14,867 nucleotides of DNA, taken from IMG/VR virus record IMGVR_UViG_2617270955_000010; one strand, written 5' to 3'. This document shows positions 1-12,160 of the stretch, piece after piece. Below the pieces are notes generated by a model, which was not told where the DNA came from, made no database searches, and saw only the letters and a program-made list of their open reading frames with translations. This stretch comes from a virus (Duplodnaviria > Heunggongvirae > Uroviricota > Caudoviricetes). Every line of letters begins with the position of its first letter. The stretch's first letter is position 1. Made by a program: the position numbers and the translations under genes.

Positions 1-1542
1 ATGCCAACAGTTCCAATTTCTATGAGAAAACTTAAAGAAATTCTTAGGCTTAAATACGGTGTTGGACTCAGCCATCGACAAATTGGTCGTAGTCTTGCAA
101 TCTCCCCTTCCGTTGTATCCAGATATGCTAATCGGGCGGCTCAACTTGGCATAAAGCAGTGGCCCTTACCTACAGGATGGGATGATACAAAACTAAAACA
201 TGCGTTCCTTCAGACCCAGGTTAAGATGAAGAAGCACTCTCTGCCTGACTGGGCTACAGTACACCGGGAACTGCGTAATAAATGCGTGACGCTGCAGCTA
301 CTCTGGGAAGAATACTGTGAGCGTAATCCAGGCGGTTTTTACAGCTATAACCATTACTGCCGGATGTACCGTGAATGGCTCAAAACCACTTCACCATCAA
401 TGCGTCAGGTACATAAAGCTGGCGAAAAACTTTTCGTTGATTACTGTGGACCTACCGTTGGCGTTACCGACCCTGAGACCGGAGAAATAAGAACTGCTCA
501 GGTCATCGTAGCTGTTCTCGGGGCATCAAGTTACACATGGGCAGAGGCCACCTGGTCTCAGCAGCTTGAAGACTGGGTGATGAGTCATGTTCGCTGCTTC
601 CAGTGGTTGGGTGGCGTTCCTGAACTTGTTGTTCCGGACAATCTGAAAAGCGCCACATCCAGGGCATGTAAGTATGATCCTGACGTTAACCCTACCTACC
701 AGCAGATGCTTGAGCATTATAATGTCGCAGTTTTGCCTGCGCGGCCACGTAAACCGAAAGATAAAGCCAAAGCTGAAGTTGGCGTTCAGGTTGTTGAACG
801 CTGGATCATGGCCCGAATCAGGCATGAGATCTTCTACAGCCTTGCATCGCTTAATCAGCGCATTCGGGAGTTGCTGGAAAGACTGAATAACAAAATAATG
901 CAGAAGTTGGGTTATTCACGTGCAGAACTCTTCATCCAGCTTGATAAACCCGCACTGAAGCCTCTTCCTGAAGCCAGTTACAGTTACACCCTGGTGAAGA
1001 AAGTCAGAGTTCATGCCGATTACCACGTGGAAATCGACAAACATTACTACTCGGTTCCATGTTCGCTGTTAGGCCAGCAACTGGAAGCATGGATCTCCGG
1101 AGAACTGGTAAGACTCTTCAATCAGGGGCAGGAGGTTGCTGTGCACCCGCGCAAGCGTACTTATGGCTACAGTACCCGCAACGAGCACATGCCTGAAGCT
1201 CATCGACAGCATGCCACCTGGACGCCAGAGCGTCTTCTGGAATGGGCGGGGCACATAGGCAGTGAAACTCATAGTTATGTGCTTCATATACTGAACTCTC
1301 GTCCACATCCGGAACAAAGCTATCGCTTCTGCCTTGGACTCCTGAACCTTCATAAAAAATACAGTAAAGCCAGACTTAATGCAGCATGTGCAAGAGCTCT
1401 GAAAACAAAGGTATGGCGTCTGTCAGGTATTAAATCGATCCTGGAAAAAGGTCTGGATAAACAACCTGTTCAGGATCCAAAACCAGATCTGTTATCCACG
1501 ATGGAACACGAAAACGTACGCGGCAGTGAGTATTACCACTGA
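1..1542 (+). CDS. istA: IS21-family transposase IstA (N-terminal HTH plus DDE catalytic domain)
   Basis: 513-aa ORF. The N-terminus MPTVPISMRKLKEILRLKYG...LSHRQIGRSL is typical of IstA helix-turn-helix N-termini. It is followed 11 bp later by an IstB-type ATPase gene. The ATG is at window position 1, so the upstream IR is not visible. Confidence 0.92.
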   Translation: MPTVPISMRKLKEILRLKYGVGLSHRQIGRSLAISPSVVSRYANRAAQLGIKQWPLPTGWDDTKLKHAFLQTQVKMKKHSLPDWATVHRELRNKCVTLQLLWEEYCERNPGGFYSYNHYCRMYREWLKTTSPSMRQVHKAGEKLFVDYCGPTVGVTDPETGEIRTAQVIVAVLGASSYTWAEATWSQQLEDWVMSHVRCFQWLGGVPELVVPDNLKSATSRACKYDPDVNPTYQQMLEHYNVAVLPARPRKPKDKAKAEVGVQVVERWIMARIRHEIFYSLASLNQRIRELLERLNNKIMQKLGYSRAELFIQLDKPALKPLPEASYSYTLVKKVRVHADYHVEIDKHYYSVPCSLLGQQLEAWISGELVRLFNQGQEVAVHPRKRTYGYSTRNEHMPEAHRQHATWTPERLLEWAGHIGSETHSYVLHILNSRPHPEQSYRFCLGLLNLHKKYSKARLNAACARALKTKVWRLSGIKSILEKGLDKQPVQDPKPDLLSTMEHENVRGSEYYH

Positions 1543-1553
1543 TACGGGATCCA

Positions 1554-2303
1554 ATGATGAATCATCTTTACGAACAACTGACCGCACTTAAACTCACCGG
1601 CTTCCGTGATGCGCTTAAAAAGCAACTTGCTCAACCGGGCACATACCAGGAGCTGGGCTTCGAAGAACGCCTGTCATTACTGACAGCAGAAGAACTAACC
1701 TGCCGTGAAAACAGGAAGGCAGAGCGTCTGATCAAACATGCACGGTTCAGACTTAATGCTGAGTTATCAAAGCTGGATTATCGTAACAATAGAGGGCTGG
1801 ACAGGGCCCTCATCCGTTCACTCAGTCAGGGAAACTGGTTAACCCTGAAACAAAATATTTTACTGACCGGGGCCACCGGCAGCGGTAAAACGTTCCTGGC
1901 ATGTGCACTTGGTCATAATGCCTGCCGACAGGGATACAAGGTCTACTATTATCGCCTTAAAGCGCTGATGGAACAGTGCTATCAGGGGCATGCTGATGGA
2001 AGATACAGCAAACTTTTGACCAGGCTGAATAATAGCGATCTGCTGCTTCTGGATGACTGGGGGCTGGAACCTCTCTCATCAGAACAGCGTAGCGACCTGC
2101 TGGAAATAGTGGATCTGATGTACCAACGAGGCTCAATCATCGTAGTGAGCCAGTTGCCGGTGGAAAACTGGTACAAAATGATCGGAGACTCCACACATGC
2201 GGATGCCATCCTAGATCGACTGGTTCATGGCAGTATCAAGATCGAACTTAAAGGAGAATCAATGCGGAAAATACAATCTCCGTTGACCGAAGGAGATCAG
2301 TGA
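1554..2303 (+). CDS. istB: IS21-family helper ATPase IstB (AAA+/DnaC-like)
   Basis: 249 aa. Walker A motif GATGSGKTF and Walker B motif LLLLDDWG. Position immediately downstream of istA. Confidence 0.93.
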   Translation: MMNHLYEQLTALKLTGFRDALKKQLAQPGTYQELGFEERLSLLTAEELTCRENRKAERLIKHARFRLNAELSKLDYRNNRGLDRALIRSLSQGNWLTLKQNILLTGATGSGKTFLACALGHNACRQGYKVYYYRLKALMEQCYQGHADGRYSKLLTRLNNSDLLLLDDWGLEPLSSEQRSDLLEIVDLMYQRGSIIVVSQLPVENWYKMIGDSTHADAILDRLVHGSIKIELKGESMRKIQSPLTEGDQ

Positions 2304-2373
2304 AGGTAATTTAAAAACGGTTCTGTGAAAGTGACACGAACCGATCTCCATCGATGTTACTCACCGATCTCCT

Positions 2374-2463
2374 TCACGGTAATACGCAACCGGCGTCGAT
2401 GCCGTTCAGTTCGGCAACACGGGACAGGTAGGCATTAAATTTAAAGCGGGTTTCCTGGCGCAT
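2374..2463 (-). pseudogene. N: 5' fragment of the P2 major capsid gene N, cut by the IS21-family insertion
   Basis: The reverse strand from the ATG at 2461..2463 reads MRQETRFKFNAYLSRVAELNGIDAG, matching my recollection of the P2 gpN N-terminus. It then diverges (CVLP-stop) as it enters the IS end. It lies 58 bp downstream of the O stop, as in P2. Confidence 0.8.
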
Positions 2464-2521: not shown

Positions 2522-3376
2522 TCAGCAGTTCGTCATCAGGGCGTCACCGCCACCACCGGTGGCCTTGCTGCGGCGCTGCTGGGTCAGACTTTCGGTGTGG
2601 TCGAGACTGTTTTTCAGGCGGGTGAATGCCTGGCTGGTTTCATCCGCCCTGTCAGTCACCTCCTGCTTAAGTGCGGAAAAGGCGGTTTCCATCTCAGAGA
2701 GGCGCTGCTCAGTGGCGCTCAGTTTTTCCTGCACATGTTCAGCAACAGCGGTCACCGCTTCATGCACGTCATTCAGACGGGCGTCATCGCTGGCCTGTTT
2801 GCGGCCAAAAATGGATTTCACCTTTTCGGTCAGGGCGGTGAACACGGTTTCAGGCAGGTCTTCAAATTCCAGCTCAACAGGCGTTGCCACTGAAATCAGG
2901 TTTTCAGGGCTTAATTTGAAGCGGTTCAGGGGGTTGTGTTTTGCCGTGCGGCAGAATTCCAGGTATTCCGTGCCGAGGCTTGCCGGGTCATCGGTGACGG
3001 CCAGACCCACCAGATAACATTTGCCGGTGTTGGCAAAGTTCGGCTGAATTTCCATTGAGGTGTAGACCTTCTGCGCGGCCTTGTTCATCGCGATAAGGTC
3101 ATCGGTCGGGGTGATTTTCGCAAACAGCGCCCATTTGCCTTTCAGCGCCGAATCATCGTCAATCTTTTCGGCCTTCAGTTCGGCCACATCGCCATAACGC
3201 TTAAAAATACCGTCAGGCAGGATGCCGCGCAGATGTTCCAGGTTAATGCGGCAACCATAGACTCGCGGGTCAAAGGTTTCGGCCATTTCCTGAATATCCT
3301 GCGCACTGATGACACGCCCGTCACAGGTGTCACCCTCAACGCCGATACGAAAGAATTTTGAGACTTTTTTTGCCAT
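2522..3376 (-). CDS. O: P2-type capsid scaffolding protein gpO
   Basis: 284 aa from the internal ATG at 3374..3376 (MAKKVSKFFRIGVEGDTCDGR...), giving the length I recall for P2 gpO. The longer ORF start at 3442 adds 22 residues not expected. Gene order matches P2 (O divergent from P). Confidence 0.93.
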   Translation of the reverse strand: MAKKVSKFFRIGVEGDTCDGRVISAQDIQEMAETFDPRVYGCRINLEHLRGILPDGIFKRYGDVAELKAEKIDDDSALKGKWALFAKITPTDDLIAMNKAAQKVYTSMEIQPNFANTGKCYLVGLAVTDDPASLGTEYLEFCRTAKHNPLNRFKLSPENLISVATPVELEFEDLPETVFTALTEKVKSIFGRKQASDDARLNDVHEAVTAVAEHVQEKLSATEQRLSEMETAFSALKQEVTDRADETSQAFTRLKNSLDHTESLTQQRRSKATGGGGDALMTNC

Positions 3377-3549: not shown

Positions 3550-5322
3550 ATGACCATCACCACAGACACCACTCTTTTACACGACCCGCGTCGTCAGGCG
3601 GCGCTGCTGTACTGGCAGGGGTTTTCCGTGCCGCAGATTGCCGCCATGTTGCAGATGAAACGTCCGACGGTGCAGAGCTGGAAACAGCGCGACGGCTGGG
3701 ACAGCGTTGCCCCCATCAGCCGTGTCGAAATGAGTCTGGAAGCGCGACTGACCCAGCTCATCATCAAACCGCAGAAAACCGGCGGTGACTTCAAGGAAAT
3801 TGACCTGCTGGGACGCCAGATTGAACGACTGGCACGGGTAAACCGCTACAGTCAGACCGGCAACGAGGCAGACCTTAATCCGAACGTCGCTAACCGCAAC
3901 AAAGGCGGGCGTCGCAAACCGAAAAAGAATTTTTTCAGTGACGAGGCCATCGAAAAGCTGGAGCAGATTTTCTTTGAGCAGTCTTTCGACTATCAGTTGC
4001 ACTGGTATCGCGCCGGGCTTGAGCACCGCATCCGCGATATCCTGAAATCCCGCCAGATTGGCGCGACGTTTTATTTTTCCCGCGAGGCGCTGCTGCGCGC
4101 CCTGAAAACCGGTCATAACCAGATTTTTCTGTCGGCCAGTAAAACGCAGGCGTATGTGTTCCGCGAATACATCATCGCCTTTGCCCGGCTGGTTGACGTT
4201 GACCTGACCGGTGACCCGATTGTCCTGGGCAATAACGGCGCAAAACTGATTTTTCTCGGCACCAACTCCAACACCGCACAGAGCCATAACGGCGACCTGT
4301 ACGTCGACGAGATTTTCTGGATCCCGAATTTTCAGGTACTGCGTAAGGTGGCATCAGGTATGGCCTCACAGAGTCACCTGCGCTCGACCTATTTCTCCAC
4401 CCCGTCCACGCTGGCGCACGACGCCTACCCGTTCTGGTCGGGTGAACTGTTCAACCGGGGACGCGCCAGCGCCGCCGAACGCGTGGAAATCGACGTCAGT
4501 CATAACGCCCTTGCCGGAGGTCTTCTCTGTGCGGACGGCCAGTGGCGGCAGATTGTCACCATTGAGGACGCCCTGAAAGGCGGCTGCACGCTGTTCGACA
4601 TTGAGCAGCTCAAACGTGAAAACAGCGCCGACGATTTTAAAAACCTGTTCATGTGTGAATTTGTTGACGACAAGGCGTCGGTGTTCCCGTTCGAGGAGCT
4701 GCAACGCTGCATGGTCGACACGCTGGAAGAATGGGAAGACTATGCGCCGTTTGCCGCCAATCCGTTCGGCTCCCGCCCGGTATGGATTGGTTACGACCCG
4801 TCACACCGTGGCGACAGCGCCGGATGCGTGGTACTGGCACCGCCGGTGGTGGCCGGTGGCAAATTCAGAATACTTGAGCGTCACCAGTGGAAAGGCATGG
4901 ACTTTGCCACCCAGGCGGAATCCATCCGCAAACTCACCGAAAAATATAACGTCGAATACATCGGTATTGATGCCACCGGCCTCGGTGTCGGCGTGTTCCA
5001 GCTCGTGCGCTCGTTCTATCCCGCCGCGCGCGATATCCGCTACACACCGGAAATGAAAACCGCAATGGTGCTCAAGGCAAAAGACGTTATCCGTCGTGGC
5101 TGTCTGGAATATGACGTCAGCGCCACCGACATCACCAGCTCGTTTATGGCTATCCGCAAGACCATGACCAGCAGCGGACGCAGCGCCACCTATGAGGCCA
5201 GCCGCAGCGAGGAAGCCAGCCACGCCGACCTCGCCTGGGCGACCATGCACGCCCTGTTAAATGAGCCACTCACCGCCGGTATCAGCACCCCGCTGACATC
5301 CACCATTCTGGAGTTTTACTGA
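3550..5322 (+). CDS. P: P2-type terminase large (ATPase) subunit gpP
   Basis: 590 aa from the ATG at 3550 (MTITTDTTLLHDPRRQAALLYWQGFSVPQIAAM...), preceded by GAGG. The longer ORF from 3520 adds 10 residues. The stop overlaps the Q start (ATGA). Confidence 0.93.
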   Translation: MTITTDTTLLHDPRRQAALLYWQGFSVPQIAAMLQMKRPTVQSWKQRDGWDSVAPISRVEMSLEARLTQLIIKPQKTGGDFKEIDLLGRQIERLARVNRYSQTGNEADLNPNVANRNKGGRRKPKKNFFSDEAIEKLEQIFFEQSFDYQLHWYRAGLEHRIRDILKSRQIGATFYFSREALLRALKTGHNQIFLSASKTQAYVFREYIIAFARLVDVDLTGDPIVLGNNGAKLIFLGTNSNTAQSHNGDLYVDEIFWIPNFQVLRKVASGMASQSHLRSTYFSTPSTLAHDAYPFWSGELFNRGRASAAERVEIDVSHNALAGGLLCADGQWRQIVTIEDALKGGCTLFDIEQLKRENSADDFKNLFMCEFVDDKASVFPFEELQRCMVDTLEEWEDYAPFAANPFGSRPVWIGYDPSHRGDSAGCVVLAPPVVAGGKFRILERHQWKGMDFATQAESIRKLTEKYNVEYIGIDATGLGVGVFQLVRSFYPAARDIRYTPEMKTAMVLKAKDVIRRGCLEYDVSATDITSSFMAIRKTMTSSGRSATYEASRSEEASHADLAWATMHALLNEPLTAGISTPLTSTILEFY

Positions 5323-6356
5323 TGAGCAAGAAAAAAGGGAAAACACCGCAACCTGCGGCAAAAAAAATGACTGCCAGCGCCCCGAAAATGGAGGCATTCA
5401 CCTTTGGTGAGCCGGTGCCGGTGCTCGACCGCCGTGACATTCTGGATTACGTCGAATGCATCAGTAACGGCAGATGGTATGAGCCGCCGGTCAGCTTTAC
5501 CGGTCTGGCAAAAAGCCTGCGTGCTGCCGTGCATCACAGCTCACCGATTTACGTCAAACGTAATATTCTGGCTTCAACGTTTATCCCGCATCCATGGCTT
5601 TCCCAGCAGGATTTCAGCCGCTTTGTGCTGGATTTTCTGGTATTTGGTAATGCATTTCTGGAAAAGCGTTACAGCACCACCGGTAAGGTCATCAGACTGG
5701 AAACCTCACCGGCAAAATATACCCGCCGTGGTGTGGAAGAGGATATTTACTGGTGGGTGCCGTCCTTCAACGAGCCGACAGCCTTCGCGCCCGGCTCCGT
5801 GTTTCACCTGCTGGAGCCGGATATTAATCAGGAGCTGTACGGCCTGCCGGAATATCTCAGCGCCCTTAACTCTGCCTGGCTGAATGAGTCGGCCACGCTG
5901 TTCCGCCGCAAGTATTACGAAAATGGCGCCCATGCCGGATACATCATGTACGTCACCGATGCCGTGCAGGATCGCAACGATATCGAAATGCTTCGCGAAA
6001 ACATGGTTAAGTCGAAAGGCCGCAACAACTTTAAAAATCTGTTTCTCTATGCGCCACAGGGGAAAGCTGACGGCATTAAAATTATCCCCCTCAGTGAAGT
6101 AGCGACGAAGGACGATTTTTTTAATATCAAAAAAGCCAGCGCCACTGACCTGCTGGACGCGCACCGCATCCCCTTTCAGTTGATGGGGGGCAAGCCGGAG
6201 AACGTCGGGTCGCTGGGTGATATTGAGAAAGTGGCAAAGGTCTTTGTCCGCAATGAGCTTATCCCGTTACAGGACAGGATCCGCGAGATAAACGGCTGGC
6301 TCGGTCAGGAGGTCATCCGCTTTAAAAACTACTCACTGGACACCGACAACGGCTGA
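5322..6356 (+). CDS. Q: P2-type portal protein gpQ
   Basis: 344 aa, MSKKKGKTPQPAAKK...; translationally coupled to P; followed by an intrinsic terminator and the cos site, as in P2. Confidence 0.93.
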   Translation: MSKKKGKTPQPAAKKMTASAPKMEAFTFGEPVPVLDRRDILDYVECISNGRWYEPPVSFTGLAKSLRAAVHHSSPIYVKRNILASTFIPHPWLSQQDFSRFVLDFLVFGNAFLEKRYSTTGKVIRLETSPAKYTRRGVEEDIYWWVPSFNEPTAFAPGSVFHLLEPDINQELYGLPEYLSALNSAWLNESATLFRRKYYENGAHAGYIMYVTDAVQDRNDIEMLRENMVKSKGRNNFKNLFLYAPQGKADGIKIIPLSEVATKDDFFNIKKASATDLLDAHRIPFQLMGGKPENVGSLGDIEKVAKVFVRNELIPLQDRIREINGWLGQEVIRFKNYSLDTDNG

Positions 6357-6359
6357 ACA

Positions 6360-6381
6360 TCGCCGCCTGCGGGCGGCTTTT
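6360..6381 (+). terminator. Rho-independent terminator of the P-Q operon
   Basis: GC hairpin GCCGCC-tgcg-GGCGGC (6360..6375) followed by TTTTTT (6376..6381), 4 nt after the Q stop codon. Confidence 0.7.
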
Positions 6382-6525: not shown

Positions 6526-6544
6526 GTGCTTTCCCCGCCTCGCC
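6526..6544. other. P2-type cos site (19-nt cohesive end)
   Basis: GTGCTTTCCCCGCCTCGCC is the reverse complement of the P2 cohesive end GGCGAGGCGGGGAAAGCAC as I recall it. It lies next to Q, where cos sits in P2. Confidence 0.7.
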
Positions 6545-6661
6545 CGCCCGCTTCGTGGGACGATTTTAATGCAGTTGCCCGCATTAGCTGAATCCGCGCC
6601 AGAACAGACATTATGGATATGTCAATACGAACTTATTGACGTGCAAAATCATGCAATCAAG

Positions 6662-6694
6662 CGCAAAAAAAAACCGCCTTCAAAGAGGCGGTTT
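6662..6694 (-). terminator. Rho-independent terminator of the cargo operon
   Basis: On the minus strand: a 9-bp stem AAACCGCCT / AGGCGGTTT (6671..6679 and 6686..6694) with a 6-nt loop, followed by a run of about 9 U. It lies 16 nt downstream of the kinase-HIRAN stop codon. Confidence 0.75.
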
Positions 6695-6709
6695 ATGTTA
6701 TCCCATTGA

Positions 6710-8353
6710 TTAAGATCTACATTCAACTAAAAGGTACACTAATGGACGTTCTGGCGTCCCATTCTTCTTTGCAACAAAAGCAGATATTTTGTGTTTTGCT
6801 ATTTTTTGCTTGAGTTTTTTACATAACACTTTGTTTATATAACCAAGTTTCCCGCTCTCATGAACAACAGCTATAGCATGTGGATCAACCGGGTTATCCT
6901 CTTCAGGAACAAGCTTGACCAAATCACCGACCATTACTTTCGACAAATCAAGCCCTTCCTGATAACGAGTTCCTGCCACTTCAAAAAGAAGCTCACCTTC
7001 ACTATTAAGAATTTCTGGATCTGGCACCAAACAAAAACCATCGCCAGGTGATTTTGCTCCTGTATATCCTAACAGCGCAAAATCAGAGCCTTCAAATGGA
7101 TGGGGGAGCAAATGTTGAGCCAGATACTCAGCAAAGTCTTTTCTTTTCCGTGGTGGTAAACGCCGAACAAACGGGTCAAGCACGTTGTTCGTATGTTCTT
7201 CACTTTTCAGACTAAATGCGGGATGTCCTGCAAACCCTTTCTCTTGGGCTTTAGCATAATCTTCTGACTGAAAATGGTATGTGAAGACGTAGTTATCCCC
7301 TTGCTGACGATCAATCTGACCAACAACATAACGAGTACCGCCTGTGGGTGGCTGCCATGTAAGAAGCAACCGAGTAGGCTCCATTATTCTGTTTATAGTA
7401 CGCATATTTAGAATCAGTGATAACCTTAGGTATCTACGCCTCAATAAACGAATCGTCCAATCCGCTCGTTCCCTAGTGAACGGCACATCGGAGCTAATTT
7501 CGCAAAGTGAATCTATCTTGTCGACCAGTTCCTGAAAATCAAATTCAAGTCTCCGGGCCAAGTACGCTTTTGACTGCTCATCAAGAGCCAAATCCTGTAT
7601 AGAAGAAATATGACCTAATCGTTCATGCGTGTCTGCCCGATTCTTCCGCAAATGATGACAACCACGCTGTATGTATTCATCTACATTTTGATGGTTCCAT
7701 CCTCTGATCCTCTCTACATACCTTTCATGCCCCAAACTAGTACCATTATCGAAATATGGTGCGAGATATCCCTTCACTTTAGGTGGCGTTATGCCTGGTG
7801 CAGATTCAGGTACAAAAACAAAACCCCAATTCTCTTGGTGTCTATCACTATTACCGATGAGCGCATCAAAAAGCAGCATATCGTAAAGCCATTGGATCCA
7901 GTCTGGAGAGATCAGGCCGCGGATACTAAAAGCCCTACAAATTAAGCGTAGATCAACAAGGTTATGGTGTCTTCCGGAAGAGTCATCAAAATCCGATATC
8001 AACACATGAAAAAAATCAGACGCATGAACAAATAACTGGCTACTTTGATCGTAAAACCACTCAAGCAAAGCTCCATATTCGTATTCACCGTTCTCCATCA
8101 TTCTTCGCGCTGGCAATGCTTTAGGAACAGGAACGCCCATAACATCTCCAACTATATAAGCAACGGTTTCCATCCAGTACTGATCGGGATAAGCATCTCT
8201 TGAGAGTTTAAAAAGATAAGGCCATTCCGGTTTTATCCCCTCAGGAGCATCATTCGGTGACCAAAGCATTTTTTTATCCCTCGCTCCTCGAGGAAAAATG
8301 CCATGCTCATCATCTTTACGCCAACTAGTTACATCTATTAAATTGATATCCAT
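6710..8353 (-). CDS. HipA-family (HipA_C-like) Ser/Thr kinase core fused to a C-terminal HIRAN domain; candidate defence effector/sensor
   Basis: 547 aa. Kinase motifs: P-loop-like GARDKK (aa 23-28), catalytic loop LIGNSDRHQENWGF (D170/H172/N175; HipA DxHxxN motif), and metal-binding APYFDNGTS (D202; compare HipA AP-YD--S). C-terminal ~93 aa (aa ~455-547), ...AGTRYQEGLDLSKVMVGDLVKLVPEEDNPVDPHAIAVVHESGKLGYINKVL..., fits the HIRAN pattern (G-x-x-Y, L-x-x-E-x-x-N-P-x-D-x-x-A-I, G-Y-I). The start is 9 nt after the exonuclease stop (operon). Domain calls are from motif recognition only. Confidence 0.8.
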   Translation of the reverse strand: MDINLIDVTSWRKDDEHGIFPRGARDKKMLWSPNDAPEGIKPEWPYLFKLSRDAYPDQYWMETVAYIVGDVMGVPVPKALPARRMMENGEYEYGALLEWFYDQSSQLFVHASDFFHVLISDFDDSSGRHHNLVDLRLICRAFSIRGLISPDWIQWLYDMLLFDALIGNSDRHQENWGFVFVPESAPGITPPKVKGYLAPYFDNGTSLGHERYVERIRGWNHQNVDEYIQRGCHHLRKNRADTHERLGHISSIQDLALDEQSKAYLARRLEFDFQELVDKIDSLCEISSDVPFTRERADWTIRLLRRRYLRLSLILNMRTINRIMEPTRLLLTWQPPTGGTRYVVGQIDRQQGDNYVFTYHFQSEDYAKAQEKGFAGHPAFSLKSEEHTNNVLDPFVRRLPPRKRKDFAEYLAQHLLPHPFEGSDFALLGYTGAKSPGDGFCLVPDPEILNSEGELLFEVAGTRYQEGLDLSKVMVGDLVKLVPEEDNPVDPHAIAVVHESGKLGYINKVLCKKLKQKIAKHKISAFVAKKNGTPERPLVYLLVECRS

Positions 8354-8362
8354 ATCTTACGG

Positions 8363-8914
8363 TTACCCAGCTAATGCACGGAAAGCAGCACTAACATAAG
8401 CTACCTGAAACTTTGCATCTCGAAGCGCATGATGCGCATCAGTAACATTAATGGAAAAATTTGCCCTTACATCAATATTCTTAAGGCTTTTAGCTAGTTC
8501 AACGATGGTACGCACGTCTCGATCATTTCGAAAACGCCATGGGATATTTTGCGCATGTTTACGGTAAACCGCTGCCAATATAGCGTTATCAAAGCTTGCC
8601 CCATTCCCCCAAACTTGTACGTCATCGTTACTACGACTTCGTACAAATAGAGAAAATTCTTGTAAGGCTTCATGTAAGTCAACAGCAGACGGGTCATTAA
8701 AAACCGCCCTTGCAGAATCGCTTTGTATCATCCACCACTGTAAAGTTTTTGGGTCTACAAAACTATTTTCCAATGCAGATGATAGGGTTATAACTCTATA
8801 AAACTCATCCCCACACTTGCCAGTCAGAGGCTCAAAGAACACAGCGCCGATTGAAATCAAAGGAGCATCCATTGACACACCTAATGTTTCTATATCGAGC
8901 ATTAAATTATTCAT
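8363..8914 (-). CDS. DexA-like DEDDh 3'-5' exonuclease (DnaQ-fold)
   Basis: 183 aa. Exo I motif LDIETLG (D7, E9); Exo II motif WGNGASFDNAIL (D109); Exo III motif DAHHALRDA (H161-x4-D166). The overall pattern resembles phage T4 DexA (IDFETMG, GMSFDFPIL, HDSIHD). Strong SD GGAGG 5 nt upstream of the ATG. Confidence 0.85.
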   Translation of the reverse strand: MNNLMLDIETLGVSMDAPLISIGAVFFEPLTGKCGDEFYRVITLSSALENSFVDPKTLQWWMIQSDSARAVFNDPSAVDLHEALQEFSLFVRSRSNDDVQVWGNGASFDNAILAAVYRKHAQNIPWRFRNDRDVRTIVELAKSLKNIDVRANFSINVTDAHHALRDAKFQVAYVSAAFRALAG

Positions 8915-9054
8915 TTAACCTCCACCCCAGACATAGCTCAGGGAAACGTAACCTATTGAAATAACGAATCAAGTATTTGTCACATTCTATACTAAAACAT
9001 TCGAATTCCAAAACTTCAGCTTTTGCAACCCCTTACAAGTCAATTGATCCATAA

Positions 9055-9074
9055 TACTGTATACATACACAGTA
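9055..9074. promoter_or_regulatory. Putative LexA (SOS) operator upstream of the cargo operon
   Basis: TACTGTATACATACACAGTA has the CTGT-N8-ACAG pattern with an AT-rich centre and matches the E. coli LexA consensus TACTGTATATATATACAGTA at 18 of 20 positions. It lies 18 bp downstream of the A stop and about 140 bp upstream of the exonuclease ATG on the same transcriptional side. Confidence 0.5.
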
Positions 9075-9092
9075 CTACATTTGAAAAACAAA

Positions 9093-11369
9093 TCAAGGGA
9101 AATCATTAAAACCCGGCCAATCACAACAAGGCGGATAAACAAATTTTTTCATGTCATAAATAACTTCTGCCCCACGAGCCAGCGCCTCAAGCTCCCATCT
9201 CTGAGGCCTGATACCGTTCTGAGCAAGGTCAACGCGGATACGGGTGATTTGCAATCGTTCAGACCGGGTCAGTCTGGCCGATGGTGCAATTTCATGCGGT
9301 TTTAACGGGCTTCCGTTTCTTTGCCGACGATTTGGCGTTCTCAGCCCGTGTTTTAATGCGCCCCTGAGCGCCTTCACGACCTCCGGGTCATTCCATTCGA
9401 TAACACCATCATCAACCAGATTAAGCACTGCTGCGGCGTGCTCAGAAGGTGTGGGAACCGGTAACGAAGTATCACCACCGGTGAGCTTTCCACAGTTATT
9501 GACAGGACTCCGAGGCGCGGCGATGCCGCTTTTTAAAGTCAAAGGCTCAACGACCGGAACTTTCGGCACAATGCGCCAGTCCGTCGTTCTGGTGATATGA
9601 ATATGACGCGCGCCGAGATGCGGCGCGTAAATGCCGACCACTCTCTCGACCTCTTCCTCGTACTCGTTAACGTCATCCGACGGGCTACGGGCGACCCTGA
9701 CAGTCTGACAATCGCGCGGGACATTTGCCCCACCCTGCGCGCTGATATACAGCGCAAAATCGCCACTGTCTGCGGCGGCGCGTGCAGCCTCCACGCGTTC
9801 GTCAAATTCATCAGCAATGCTGACGCCGCGAGGCAATTTACGTAGCTCACGGTAAGCTCCCATTGTCGGCAGGCCAACCGTTTTAAATTGCGGGATGCGC
9901 CACGTTGACGCCCATGCGGTAACAGCCGCGGCAGTATCTTTCAGCGGTCTGCCGGTATCGTTATCGAGCTGACCATCCAGTGCATAGCCGTCGATATTTT
10001 TTGAAATGTATTTCGCGATATATCCCGCAGCACCGCCCCGGTTAAGGTGTTTTGCCTGAAAACGGTTTCGCGCGGCTCCTCTTTCGTCGCCATCCTCTTT
10101 GAGCGCATAGCGACGCATGATTTCGATAATCTGGTTACGCTGGCGTGGATTACAAAAAAGCATCATATGCCAGTGCGGCGTTCCGTCGTGGTGTGGCTCG
10201 ACGACTCGCAAACCGTAGACCTGTAAATCATTATCCTTGAATGCCGTGCGCATCAGGCTCCAGATACGGCAGAGATAACGCTGCGCATCCTTTGGATTAA
10301 ATGCCTCATCATTCCAGCCGTGATTAAGCTGGACGGTTTTATTTTCGCCTTTTCCAACCTGACGTGTCGGGTGATACTTTGACGGCGCGGTAAGCGTGAT
10401 AAACATCCCCACATCACCCTCTGAGGCGGCGTAACGCTCAATACCGGCAATGGTGTTCATCAGCTCCATCCGGCGAATTTCAGGATTAGAAATACTGCCC
10501 ATCACCTTACTGATAAGGTCGATGCGCTCGCCGGTTTCCCTGTTTTCAAGGTCACACGATTTAAGAAATTCCAGATTTGCCTGGCGGCGCGCACGCACAT
10601 CACGAATGGCATGTTTACTGGCATAAGGTGAACGGTCTTTATTGACCTCCCCGACAGCAATCAGTAACGCCTCATGCCAGCGCATACGCTGGCCTTTAAG
10701 CTGACTAATCCACCACTCATCGTTAAACAGGCGGGCAATGGCAGAATATGCCTGCCTCGTGGTCATCTGCCCTTTACGGTATTTTCTCCAGTAAAGCGGG
10801 GAAATATTGAAAGCACGTGCAGCGCCAGCAACATGACCATACAGGTGAGCCTGCGCCTCATCCGTAAACAGCGATTCTTTTTCGCCATGCGCATCCACCC
10901 AGGCATCGCAGAGTTCCCCATACATCATGAAAAGCTGCGATGAGATTCGGGCGGCAAACTTTTTCAGCTCCTTGTCATTCATCCCCGGCAGGCGCGCATA
11001 CTGGTCGCGCTCTGCCAGAAACAGCAACGACGCGTCAGTGTTCATTTCATGGCGCTGATTCACACGCTCAATGCGCGGCCATAAACGACGCTGAAAAGTG
11101 GATGTGAGGAAATAAAACCCGTGCACCGGGCTTTTATTGCGCCGGATGTAGTCATAGCGTGAAGTAAACAGCGAGCGCAAAAAGTAAGGCAGGCGGTTAA
11201 TCATGGATAAAACACCTTGCACCTGACGCATCTCGTCACGTGTAAGGGGTCTTTCGCGCCCGACAGCCTCGCGTGGCGCGTTCCACGCATAAGCACCGGT
11301 AAACGTCTTACCGGTGCCTGCGGCAAATGCTGACGGAGGGACAAAACGCCCGGAGGCTTTAACGGCCAT
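9093..11369 (-). CDS. A: P2-type replication initiation protein gpA (rolling-circle endonuclease)
   Basis: 758 aa from MAVKASGRFVPPSAFAAGTGK..., the N-terminus I recall for P2 gpA. The ORF track extends 14 codons further to 11411, which is a possible alternative start. HUH-like motif TPHWHMMLF and paired catalytic tyrosines GYIAKYISK (Y-x3-Y). Confidence 0.93.
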   Translation of the reverse strand: MAVKASGRFVPPSAFAAGTGKTFTGAYAWNAPREAVGRERPLTRDEMRQVQGVLSMINRLPYFLRSLFTSRYDYIRRNKSPVHGFYFLTSTFQRRLWPRIERVNQRHEMNTDASLLFLAERDQYARLPGMNDKELKKFAARISSQLFMMYGELCDAWVDAHGEKESLFTDEAQAHLYGHVAGAARAFNISPLYWRKYRKGQMTTRQAYSAIARLFNDEWWISQLKGQRMRWHEALLIAVGEVNKDRSPYASKHAIRDVRARRQANLEFLKSCDLENRETGERIDLISKVMGSISNPEIRRMELMNTIAGIERYAASEGDVGMFITLTAPSKYHPTRQVGKGENKTVQLNHGWNDEAFNPKDAQRYLCRIWSLMRTAFKDNDLQVYGLRVVEPHHDGTPHWHMMLFCNPRQRNQIIEIMRRYALKEDGDERGAARNRFQAKHLNRGGAAGYIAKYISKNIDGYALDGQLDNDTGRPLKDTAAAVTAWASTWRIPQFKTVGLPTMGAYRELRKLPRGVSIADEFDERVEAARAAADSGDFALYISAQGGANVPRDCQTVRVARSPSDDVNEYEEEVERVVGIYAPHLGARHIHITRTTDWRIVPKVPVVEPLTLKSGIAAPRSPVNNCGKLTGGDTSLPVPTPSEHAAAVLNLVDDGVIEWNDPEVVKALRGALKHGLRTPNRRQRNGSPLKPHEIAPSARLTRSERLQITRIRVDLAQNGIRPQRWELEALARGAEVIYDMKKFVYPPCCDWPGFNDFP

Positions 11370-11634: not shown

Positions 11635-11855
11635 GCCGTTCTCCGGTAATGTTTGTTTTTTGCTTCAAAGACTGACTGACAGGAAACACATCGCGTGGCT
11701 GACGGATAAGCAGCACGACGGGCAGCAGGTATTGGCGCGTCACACTCTTCGCAAACCAGCGCAGAAGCACCGCAATGTTTTACCCTTGCCGCGTTAATCT
11801 GGCGCTCCAGTAATTCAGCCTGTTGTTCCTGAATAAAATCTACGTTGTCCGGCAT
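11631..11855 (-). CDS. P2 orf82-like TraR/DksA-family C4 zinc-finger protein
   Basis: 74 aa with CEEC...(18 aa)...CVSC cysteine pairs; the position corresponds to P2 orf82; 4-nt overlap with neighbours. Confidence 0.8.
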   Translation of the reverse strand: MPDNVDFIQEQQAELLERQINAARVKHCGASALVCEECDAPIPAARRAAYPSATRCVSCQSVFEAKNKHYRRTA

Positions 11856-12160
11856 TACCAGCTCCTTTTGTCGTTCAGCTTCTTAAATTCATCAGCGCAA
11901 TAACTGGCGAGTTCTGTCGTTAATTTTGTCAGTTCATCCACTGAGGAAATTTGCTTGTGGAATACAGCGCGTTTAACAAGTAAATTGACCACATCAGACA
12001 GGAGGTTTAATTCACTCTGATAAATCGCGATAACAGATTCAGTTATTTCGCGCTTCTCTTTATCAATACCAAGTTGAATAAGAGACAAATCACCATTTTT
12101 CATAACGGCGATTTTTAAGGCGTTATTCAGTAATACAACTGAATGAGAACAGGACATCAA
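11855..12160 (-). CDS. P2 orf81-like early protein
   Basis: 101 aa, matching the size and position of P2 orf81; start/stop overlaps with flanking genes. Confidence 0.75.

Follow-up and report, generated by a model that had tools for sequence, protein, structure and literature searches.

The AT-rich tract in the window (the whole stretch of DNA analysed, 14,867 nucleotides) is very probably a cassette that can be replaced, situated in the variable slot which P2-family genomes have between replication gene A and cos/portal gene Q, and AT-rich as a long-standing property of its gene pool. The two genes of the tract are cargo swapped horizontally at this hotspot and are not core phage genes. These assignments are based on the composition and boundaries of the tract, its presence/absence polymorphism, its mosaic identity and the domain architecture of its proteins, and the features concerned are collected in Table 1. 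The gene pair and the hotspot were already known, and the compositional observation is correct but ordinary.

Table 1. Positions of the cassette, its genes and signals, and the conserved flanks in the window.
Feature	Position	Strand	Evidence
AT-rich exchangeable cassette, cos-proximal hotspot of P2-like prophage	6579..9108		Homology breaks and GC edges
P2 cos 19-nt cohesive-end sequence, conserved backbone outside the cassette	6526..6544	-	Exact match
Portal gene Q, conserved left flank, GC 0.526	5322..6356	+	Pfam Phage_portal; RefSeq annotation of homologous loci
Replication gene A, conserved right flank, GC 0.53	9093..11369	-	Pfam Phage_GPA, 409 bits; annotation of homologous loci
Promoter-like site (putative) upstream of the exonuclease gene: TTGGAA, 16 nt spacer, TAGAAT	8984..9011	-	Consensus scan only
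Exonuclease gene, 183 aa, predicted Rv2179c-like DEDDh 3'-5' exonuclease (formerly DUF5051)	8363..8914	-	PF16473
HipL-type kinase gene, 547 aa	6710..8353	-	Pfam HIRAN, Couple_hipA, HipA_C; PADLOC; AlphaFold2; Foldseek
Intrinsic-terminator-like hairpin and T run, end of the cargo operon	6671..6694	-	Sequence

Boundaries and exchange of the cassette

In comparisons with nine E. coli P2-like prophages carrying other cargo (flanks 94–98% identical), the homology ended at 6577–6581 and restarted at 9108–9142 in seven of the nine prophages and at about 9406–9411 in the other two. The drop and the rise in GC coincided with these breakpoints within a few tens of bases. The limits of 6700–8930 given in the preliminary description were broadly right but slightly too narrow, the tract covering approximately 6579–9108 and including the intergenic region around the promoter-like site (8915–9092, 34% GC). 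The hotspot is characterised by its position in P2-like genomes, with gene A on one side and cos/portal gene Q on the other, and by a content that varies among collinear, similar prophages with sharp breakpoints; both features were found. The 19-nt cos match (0 expected by chance) was the same sequence as that annotated in P2 as cosR. A search of the cassette edges for repeats, direct or inverted, gave only short chance-level matches, no integrase, transposase or other mobility gene was located within 6579–9108, and no known RNA families were detected in the whole window.

The cos-proximal slot of P2 has been described as a hotspot for cargo directed against phages (Rousset et al. 2022, PMC9122126). 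Its annotated cargos were restriction-modification systems, an ABC-three-component system, AAA ATPases and tin/old. The comparison of the same slot in related prophages, which had been suggested as a check of acquisition, resulted in differing contents, but the cargos of the nine other prophages were all AT-rich too (GC 0.33–0.445). The tin-old region of P2 occupies the identical slot (gene A to cos/Q) and likewise consists of dispensable cargo that brings its own transcription signals and is strongly AT-rich; the GC of tin, old, the whole P2 slot and A was 0.329, 0.348, 0.350 and 0.532, respectively. The genes are different, and the GC of old-tin is lower than that of the present cargo (0.415). 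In addition, old-tin runs the opposite way from near cos, whereas the present operon is co-directional with gene A.

Of the 2153 complete E. coli genomes having such a P2-type Q/cos flank, 61 contained the cassette (61 of 5426 genomes), every time with both genes, in a single copy and with at least 99.5% identity. Compared with three other carriers, 0–1 substitutions were determined in the 2530 bp of the cassette, whereas the abutting genes differed at 37–41 positions in 1035 bp (Q) and 53–75 positions in 2261 bp (A), i.e., a near-identical cassette is located next to Q and A with a divergence of 2.3–4%. A second allele with 58% amino-acid identity was located at this very slot in E. coli backbones which were 95–97% identical. 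The cassette was also detected in the isolated phages GMG73 and 899, and none was found on plasmids. The same type of cassette in the same slot was carried by P2-like prophages of Serratia, Atlantibacter and Klebsiella, the amino-acid identities being 62–68% for the cassettes and 59–71% for the backbone. The presence in only a small part of the suitable genomes, the sharp homology breaks and the near-identity of the cassette beside diverged Q and A indicate that the cargo is horizontally exchanged. The exchange between P2-like genomes probably proceeds via homologous recombination in the conserved flanks.

Low GC content of the tract

The GC content of 6700–8930 was 0.422 compared to 0.506 elsewhere in the window, and that of 6579–9108 as a whole was 41.5%. 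None of the 7877 windows of 2231 bp outside the cassette was under 0.444, and the lowest-GC window of equal length in the whole stretch begins at 6933. The earlier designation of the 6.7–8.9 kb segment as AT-rich was therefore correct. The flanks had been described as GC-balanced to GC-rich, which applies to Q (0.526) and A (0.533), with P at 0.573, but not to the small early genes, which are AT-leaning (0.376–0.507). The GC of the orf81 homologue (11855–12157), 0.376, was lower than that of the cargo; the corresponding value of P2 orf81 was 0.373. Long A/T runs had also been listed as a mark of the cargo. However, the density of homopolymers of at least 5 nt was similar to that of the backbone: 5.8 per kb in the cargo, 5.3 in the late region and 6.3 in the early region.

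The GC1 and GC2 values of the cargo (0.53–0.56 and 0.37–0.39, respectively) were comparable with those of the backbone genes, and the gap lay at GC3. The GC3 of the kinase gene (GC 0.424) and the exonuclease gene (GC 0.411) were 0.341 and 0.310, respectively, and 0.33 for the cargo together, whereas Q, P, O and A resulted in 0.641, 0.709, 0.632 and 0.543, with 0.67 for the O/P/Q late genes. In contingency tests, the GC3 of the cargo differed from that of the late genes (p=5e-48), A (p=4e-16) and the small early genes (p=3e-7). The synonymous-codon heterogeneity between the cargo and O/P/Q/A, conditioned on the amino acid, was also high (chi2=381, 41 df, p=9e-57). Relative to the backbone, the cargo had a codon adaptation index of 0.43–0.46, compared to 0.73–0.78 for O/P/Q. 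The exonuclease and kinase genes did not differ from each other (p=0.45). The AT-rich codon choice noticed by eye was thus confirmed by GC3, the codon adaptation index and the synonymous-codon heterogeneity, and the tract is a compositional island in the sense of a significant difference from the flanking P2 genes in GC, GC3 and codon usage. The composition is, however, not unique to acquired DNA, as the conserved backbone orf81 shares the low GC.

Horizontal acquisition into the hotspot, as concluded in the preliminary description, is supported, but chiefly by non-compositional evidence. The step from AT-rich to acquired and not ancestral is weak, because the other cargos of the slot are AT-rich and backbone orf81 is equally so, and because the cassettes of the other genera, diverged like the backbone, are still 7–12 GC points under their own flanks. 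Among 71 species, the GC of the kinase/HIRAN module was lower than that of its flanks in 66, and over all 71 it followed the GC of the host (r=0.78, slope 0.74), the offset of about -6 points being constant. Therefore, the low GC is a standing property of the gene pool; it is neither a clock of recent arrival nor a fingerprint of a low-GC donor. Nearly all of it at synonymous third positions, the low GC probably represents a long-standing trait of the mobile defence-type gene pool in the slot. As such, AT-richness persists across hosts and long divergence, and flags accessory cargo but does not date its arrival. The persistent host-tracking offset calls for caution in scans which equate 'AT-rich' with 'recently acquired'.

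A recent arrival of both genes from a low-GC donor, not yet ameliorated, would make the AT-richness a signature of that arrival and would agree with a GC3 far under that of the flanks and with the near-identity among the E. coli carriers, which fits a recent spread. Such an import is improbable, since the cassettes in the same slot of the other genera have kept their GC deficit at backbone-like divergence, the module GC follows the host and has no fixed donor value, and all the other slot cargos examined and orf81 are equally or more AT-rich. The absence of a copy with over 95% nucleotide identity from low-GC genomes outside P2-like phages also speaks against it. The amino-acid composition of the proteins, in place of codon choice or gene history, was rejected as the cause of the low GC; it would be compatible with the raw GC value alone, but is made highly improbable by GC1 and GC2 matching the backbone and by the synonymous heterogeneity. 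An ordinary regional fluctuation along the phage genome, in line with local dips to 0.40 in the early region, was also rejected as practically negligible, because no outside window of equal length was as low in GC as the cassette and the edges of the dip fall on the homology breakpoints.

The exonuclease–kinase operon

Judged from its sequence, the cassette is one self-contained minus-strand operon of two genes, with a putative promoter, the predicted exonuclease, the HipL kinase and a terminator-like hairpin. The kinase starts 9 nt past the stop codon of the exonuclease on the same strand, and the hairpin is located 16 nt past the stop codon of the kinase.

The exonuclease protein matched PF16473 with 192.4 bits (cut-off 27) over the profile positions 1–176 of 177, and a match to phrog_255 'exonuclease' was obtained. 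The motifs DIET, NGASFD and HHALRDA were found at residues 7, 104 and 161, respectively. The full-length profile match and the DEDDh motif residues assign it, as a predicted enzyme, to the Rv2179c-like DEDDh family.

The kinase consists of a HipA-like core (residues ~1–310), a HipS-like domain (~325–440) and a HIRAN domain (~453–545), the last predicted to bind 3' DNA ends. The scores of Pfam Couple_hipA (residues 343–437) and HIRAN (residues 453–525) were 26.7 and 41.2 bits with the cut-offs of 22.5 and 24.7, respectively, whereas HipA_C, 25.8, was under its gathering cut-off of 30.5. The PADLOC profiles PDC-M03A (residues 4–308, E=4e-31) and PDC-M03B (residues 325–525, E=1e-30) both matched this single polypeptide, though PDC-M03 consists of two genes. 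In the PDB, only a weak match to CtkA was detected by sequence, and a fold search was needed. The AlphaFold2 model (pLDDT 88.5, pTM 0.89) was matched by Foldseek to CtkA (TM 0.75), HipA and HipT, and the HIRAN domain of HLTF gave a fold match with 2.7 Å rmsd. The kinase motifs DRHQEN and FDNGTSLG were found at residues 170 and 201. The catalytic and ligand-binding residues D170, H172, N175, D202 and K49, as well as N487 and D490, were invariant in 23–28 homologues. W11, D14, G23, R25 and K27 were also invariant in homologues, which supports the longer kinase reading of 547 aa.

An N-terminal HipA-type core kinase with conserved catalytic motifs, a HipS-like domain in the interior and a HIRAN domain at the C-terminus correspond to the HipL architecture of Gerdes, Baerentsen and Brodersen 2021 (PMC8262856). 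HipL is described there as monocistronic, whereas in the present case and in all the fused relatives examined the kinase gene comes second in an operon, after that of a DEDDh exonuclease. The adjoining helix-turn-helix antitoxin gene HipB of hipBA was not found; just two ORFs with family matches, neither of them a helix-turn-helix protein, were detected in the cassette.

The adjacency of the exonuclease and the kinase was kept down to 45–58% exonuclease identity in Serratia, Atlantibacter, Klebsiella, Shewanella and the divergent E. coli allele, and the two were paired in every fused relative examined. The gene order was strict and the spacing 3–10 nt in both fused and split forms of the kinase. 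Of the 80 related kinase/HIRAN loci retrieved, 77 were split and 76 were without the exonuclease; no exonuclease homologues were found near these 76 by phmmer or by a subsequent profile built from five sequences. The exonuclease is thus not a universal partner, because distant relatives occur alone. The only other conserved neighbours of the split modules were type I restriction-modification genes, at 7–10 loci. Exonuclease relatives below ~50% identity were solitary genes in other prophages, ordinary in early regions.

Related systems and possible function of the pair

The pair was catalogued and cloned with its native promoter as pFR108 from E. coli TA255 by Rousset et al. 2022 (PMC9122126). 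The exonuclease (protein 1) of pFR108 is identical to the present one, the printed part of the kinase is identical as well and the flanking cos sequence is the same, but the kinase was annotated there from Met29. Table S2B of that study places 'Exonuclease + HipA' under the 'additional tested systems', outside the validated ones, and therefore no protection was reported against the panel of eight phages (PMC9122126). 'DUF5051 + HIRAN' entries are given in Table S5 of the same paper. No literature was found which validates HipL, HIRAN-kinases or DUF5051 as a defence system; other HipA-family kinases have been validated in defence (PMC13092281).

The hipIN modules (PADLOC candidate PDC-M03, kinase A and HipS-like/HIRAN B) contain both functional halves with 35–57% identity. 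These halves are split in hipIN and fused in one chain in the present kinase, and the split modules are without the exonuclease, save one Shewanella locus and some E. coli P2 hotspot entries. HipBST and HipBA share the kinase fold, and by analogy the HipS-like domain is a plausible internal inhibitor. In contrast to the cassette, they have a HipB-type helix-turn-helix gene, and lack HIRAN and the exonuclease partner.

An abortive-infection-type anti-phage module is tentatively proposed as the function of the pair. The HIRAN domain may sense free 3' DNA ends made during infection, which would lift the HipS-like auto-inhibition of the kinase, and the freed kinase could phosphorylate a translation factor, e.g., an aminoacyl-tRNA synthetase. 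Without infection, the 3'-5' exonuclease from the same transcript would limit the 3'-end signal, or it would process this signal. The predicted consistent co-transcription of HipL with an exonuclease in the fused clade offers a concrete, testable hypothesis on the function of the system.

It is possible, though doubtful, that the pair is not anti-phage and represents a toxin-antitoxin-like addiction module stabilising the prophage, or two independent genes of phage benefit sharing the slot, a kinase and an exonuclease serving the DNA metabolism of the phage. This would be in accordance with the lack of reported protection by pFR108, with the exonuclease relatives which are lone early-region genes in other prophages, and with HipA-family kinases being classical toxins (PMC8262856). 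The adjacency in strict order and at 3–10 nt across deep divergence, in both kinase forms, speaks against it, as do the defence systems held in the slot by neighbouring prophages, the type I restriction-modification genes beside split relatives and the status of the kinase/HIRAN pair as a PADLOC defence candidate.

A stricter form of the anti-phage proposal, in which the exonuclease and the HipL kinase are an obligate two-gene sensor-effector with a nuclease-set threshold, is rather unlikely. Here infection would supply HIRAN with its ligand, either short 3'-OH oligonucleotides or free 3' ends of DNA, and the DEDDh exonuclease would destroy this ligand in healthy cells, acting as an enzymatic 'antitoxin' and possibly being what a phage inhibitor targets. 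Ligand binding would free the HipS-like brake and the kinase would halt translation; the negative result of pFR108 would then be due to the narrow phage panel. A similar gene neighbourhood is known from mobile elements of Actinobacteria, where a diDNase (NrnC-type DEDDy dinuclease) is clustered with HipA and HIRAN genes (PMC11706625). In both cases, a DEDD-superfamily 3'-5' nuclease directly adjoins HipA-domain and HIRAN-domain genes and the functional link is putative, but the hosts are Gram-positive and the nuclease is NrnC-like, not Rv2179c-like/PF16473. The same exonuclease family was therefore rejected for these diDNases, and the likeness is an analogy. If the obligate sensor-effector were true, the independent Actinobacterial pairing of another DEDD family with HipA and HIRAN would point, by convergence, to a general design of kinase immunity gated by a nuclease.

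Base composition of the cargo and its flanks

The window is a segment of a P2-like E. coli prophage and runs in the reverse orientation of the standard P2 map. The genes were assigned by this analysis and from the RefSeq annotation of near-identical loci.

Features of the window in order of position
Feature	Position	Strand	Remark
ISEc12 (IS21-family)	1-2388		99.96% identity to the copy interrupting gene O in prophage L007
istA (IS21-family)	1-1542
istB (IS21-family)	1554-2303
Scaffold gene O	2522-3376	minus
Terminase gene P	3550-5322
Portal gene Q	5322-6356
Terminator-like hairpin	6360-6377	plus	ends gene Q
P2 cos, 19 nt	6526-6544		exact match; same as annotated cosR of P2
Low-GC tract, true extent	6579-9108		takes in the intergenic stretch (34% GC) that precedes the operon
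Strong terminator-like hairpin	6694 to 6671	minus	after the kinase gene; ends the cargo operon
HipL-type kinase gene (cargo)	6710-8353	minus
Exonuclease gene (cargo)	8363-8914	minus
Promoter-like site	9011 to 8984		upstream of the exonuclease gene
Replication gene A	9093-11369	minus
orf81 homologue (DUF5405)	11855-12157		GC 0.376, GC3 0.386
Small early genes, then cox, C, int	beyond gene A

The segment 6700-8930, preliminarily described as AT-rich by eye, had a computed GC content of 42.2% compared with 50.6% in the remaining window, the values for the flanking Q, P and A being 52.6%, 57.3% and 53.3%, respectively. None of the sliding windows of 2231 bp outside the cassette fell below 44.4% GC. 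The AT-rich codon choice was confirmed as well: the GC3 of the two cargo genes was 0.34 and 0.31 versus 0.63-0.71 for O, P and Q and 0.54 for A (p=5e-48 in the comparison with the late genes, p=4e-16 for A and p=3e-7 for the small early genes). GC1 and GC2 resembled those of the backbone, the gap lying in the third codon positions. Synonymous-codon usage differed between the cargo and O/P/Q/A (chi2=381, 41 df) and was indistinguishable between the two cargo genes, whose codon adaptation relative to the backbone was 0.43-0.46 versus 0.73-0.78 for the late genes. The core observation of AT-richness is correct and far beyond chance.

Three details of the preliminary description needed correction. 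The low-GC tract extends over 6579-9108 and so takes in intergenic DNA of 34% GC as well. Long A/T runs were not enriched in the cargo, where they were as dense as in the late region and less dense than in the early region. The flanks were GC-balanced to GC-rich in the case of Q and A but not of the small early genes (37.6% to 50.7%); a lower G+C content of the early/int segment was also reported in a published comparison of P2-like phages (PMC5694545).

The variable slot and exchange of the cassette

Of 5426 complete E. coli genomes, 2153 contained the flank comprising Q and cos, and most of these 2153 lose homology at about position 6578 of the window. The boundaries were mapped with nine prophages that carry other cargo on backbones 94-98% identical to the window. 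Homology ended at 6577-6581; it restarted at 9108-9142 for seven prophages and at about 9406-9411 for the remaining two. These are the same points at which GC drops and recovers. In these other prophages the slot held type II restriction-modification systems, an ABC-three-component system, AAA ATPases, or DUF2971, DUF4325 or DUF3850 proteins, and in P2 the same position is occupied by orf91, tin and old. Rousset et al. 2022 (PMC9122126) have described this slot as a P2 hotspot.

The AT-richness itself, previously taken to indicate horizontal acquisition, is not a sign of recent acquisition for five reasons. Firstly, the nine alternative cargos were all AT-rich (33.1-44.5% GC versus about 53% in the flanks), as are tin and old of P2 (33-35% GC), and the window's cassette is among the least extreme of the slot cargos. 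Secondly, P2-like prophages of Serratia, Atlantibacter, Klebsiella and one unclassified Pseudomonadota genome had the exonuclease-HipL cassette in this slot too, in every case 7-12 GC points under the flanks. In two of these the cassette (54-68% amino-acid identity) had diverged about as far as Q, P and A, and in Serratia the cassette was better conserved than the backbone (88-89% versus 60-80%). Thirdly, in 66 of 71 species with a related kinase/HIRAN module, the GC of the module was below that of its distal flanks; the mean offset was -5.8 points (Wilcoxon p=2e-11). Fourthly, module GC followed host GC (r=0.78, slope 0.74). Finally, orf81 is a conserved backbone gene with a 'foreign-looking', cargo-like composition; the homologue in the window is more AT-rich than the cargo, and P2's own orf81 has a GC of 0.373. 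Low GC is thus a lasting offset relative to the host, as is typical of the mobile gene pool in the slot. The offset may stem from weak codon-usage selection, from mobile-DNA mutation bias or from selection that favours silencing by nucleoid proteins.

The cargo is nevertheless exchanged horizontally, and the earlier conclusion of horizontal acquisition is essentially right; its compositional argument is weaker than it appears, and the best evidence is of another kind. The coding cassette was detected in 61 of the 5426 genomes, always as a single copy with both genes and at ≥99.5% identity. Compared with three other carriers (Escherichia phage 899 and two prophages), the cassette had 0-1 substitutions in 2530 bp, whereas 37-41 were counted over 1035 bp of the abutting Q, 7 over 222 bp of the cos spacer and 53-75 over 2261 bp of A. 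A near-identical cassette thus abuts neighbours of 2.3-4% divergence, with a sharp mosaic boundary on both sides: the pattern is one of mosaic recombination whose breakpoints coincide with the edges of the cassette. In E. coli (L092, 4001-6205) the same slot was also occupied by a second allele of the pair (~58% protein identity), although A and Q of that backbone share 95-97% identity with those of the window. This divergent allele was also present in the slot of two Klebsiella loci (L095 and L096, 4001-6217), followed by extra unannotated genes. Neither boundary repeats nor mobility genes were found at or in the cassette, which makes homologous recombination between the conserved flanks the likely route of exchange. 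The cassette was present in two deposited phage genomes at 99.9% identity; none of the plasmids searched carried it.

The exonuclease-HipL operon

The 183-aa cargo protein belongs, over its full length, to the Rv2179c-like DEDDh 3'-5' exonucleases (PF16473, 192 bits; phrog_255), and none of the three exonuclease motifs is missing. The kinase matches, as a single chain, both halves of the PADLOC candidate system PDC-M03 and has the architecture of HipL (Gerdes et al. 2021, PMC8262856). In its AlphaFold2 model (pLDDT 88.5, pTM 0.89) the N-terminal part matched the folds of CtkA, HipA and HipT, and the C-terminal part that of the DNA-bound HLTF HIRAN domain. The catalytic and ligand-contact residues did not vary in 23-28 homologues. 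Some annotations, including those of phage 899 (519-aa product) and of the table for pFR108 (a clone of the pair), start the kinase at Met29. The 547-aa start is the better call because W11, D14, G23, R25 and K27, upstream of Met29, are invariant in homologues. The kinase start codon lies 9 nt past the end of the exonuclease gene, and given this tight spacing, the promoter-like site and the terminator-like hairpin, the cassette looks like an autonomous operon.

A scan for kinase/HIRAN modules, with one genome per species, returned 80 loci. The fused form of the window was found in three, all in P2-like prophages, and the split form (a kinase gene and a HipS-like/HIRAN gene; hipIN) in 77. The exonuclease was directly upstream, in the same order, at the three fused loci and one split Shewanella locus, and absent beside the other 76. 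Exonuclease relatives at 57-58% identity (E. coli, Klebsiella) were followed by a 546-554-aa HIRAN protein in the P2 hotspot. In Table S5 of Rousset et al. (PMC9122126), 'DUF5051 + HIRAN' and the split 'DUF5051 + HipA_C + HIRAN' are entered at P2 hotspots; the counts of 31 DUF5051, 24 of this exonuclease accession and 8 HipA_C agree with the exonuclease never occurring without a kinase/HIRAN module at these hotspots. The pairing is thus clade-specific, yet conserved through deep divergence in fused and split forms, which contradicts the description of HipL as 'monocistronic' (Gerdes et al. 2021). In Actinobacteria, a different DEDD nuclease family (NrnC-type diDNases) adjoins HipA and HIRAN genes, an independent case (PMC11706625).

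A 48%-identity exonuclease relative in K. pneumoniae (L097-L099, 4001-4561) stood alone in another type of prophage, adjoining an integrase and DndB-like and ParB-like genes; it had no kinase partner and a near-backbone GC of 0.488. Split modules lay directly beside type I restriction-modification hsdM-like/hsdS-like genes in 7-10 species, a defence-island-like context (L032, L033, L034, L036, L038, L041, L046, L048, L054, L072, L082, L090 and L091).

The simplest model of the pair, which we consider somewhat less likely than not, is an abortive-infection switch. HIRAN domains bind 3' DNA ends (literature cited in the context of PMC8262856), with which the HLTF fold match agrees, and HipS-like domains inhibit cognate Hip kinases (PMC8262856). 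HipA-family kinases phosphorylate aminoacyl-tRNA synthetases, blocking translation, and some are validated phage defences (PMC13092281). The 3'-5' exonuclease would remove exactly the ligand recognised by HIRAN; infection would raise 3' ends or block the exonuclease, and HIRAN binding would then release the kinase and stop translation. Against this model, the identical pair of E. coli TA255, cloned with its native promoter (pFR108), is listed only among the 'additional tested systems' of Table S2B and not with the validated ones (PMC9122126), and no later validation was found in the literature. The AT-rich slot phenomenon, the slot and this very cassette have already been published; mildly new are the conserved exonuclease-HipL operon and the AT offset as a standing feature instead of a mark of recent acquisition.

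Other features of the prophage segment

The first base of the window is the istA start codon, and the left end of the IS therefore lies outside view. Backbone homology restarts at 2389, a position in the major-capsid gene N roughly 74 nt away from the start of that gene; because it resumes inside N beside the IS, this prophage is probably unable to produce capsids. The two hairpins flanking cos are convergent, and the cos-bearing spacer between them, about 220 bp, is GC-rich (about 60%) and looks untranscribed. Among the small early genes just past gene A, a PAPS-reductase-family gene (L009, 13326-14333) and a hypothetical gene (L011, 13294-13539) were inserted in two other prophages, which suggests a second, smaller variable spot in P2-like prophages.
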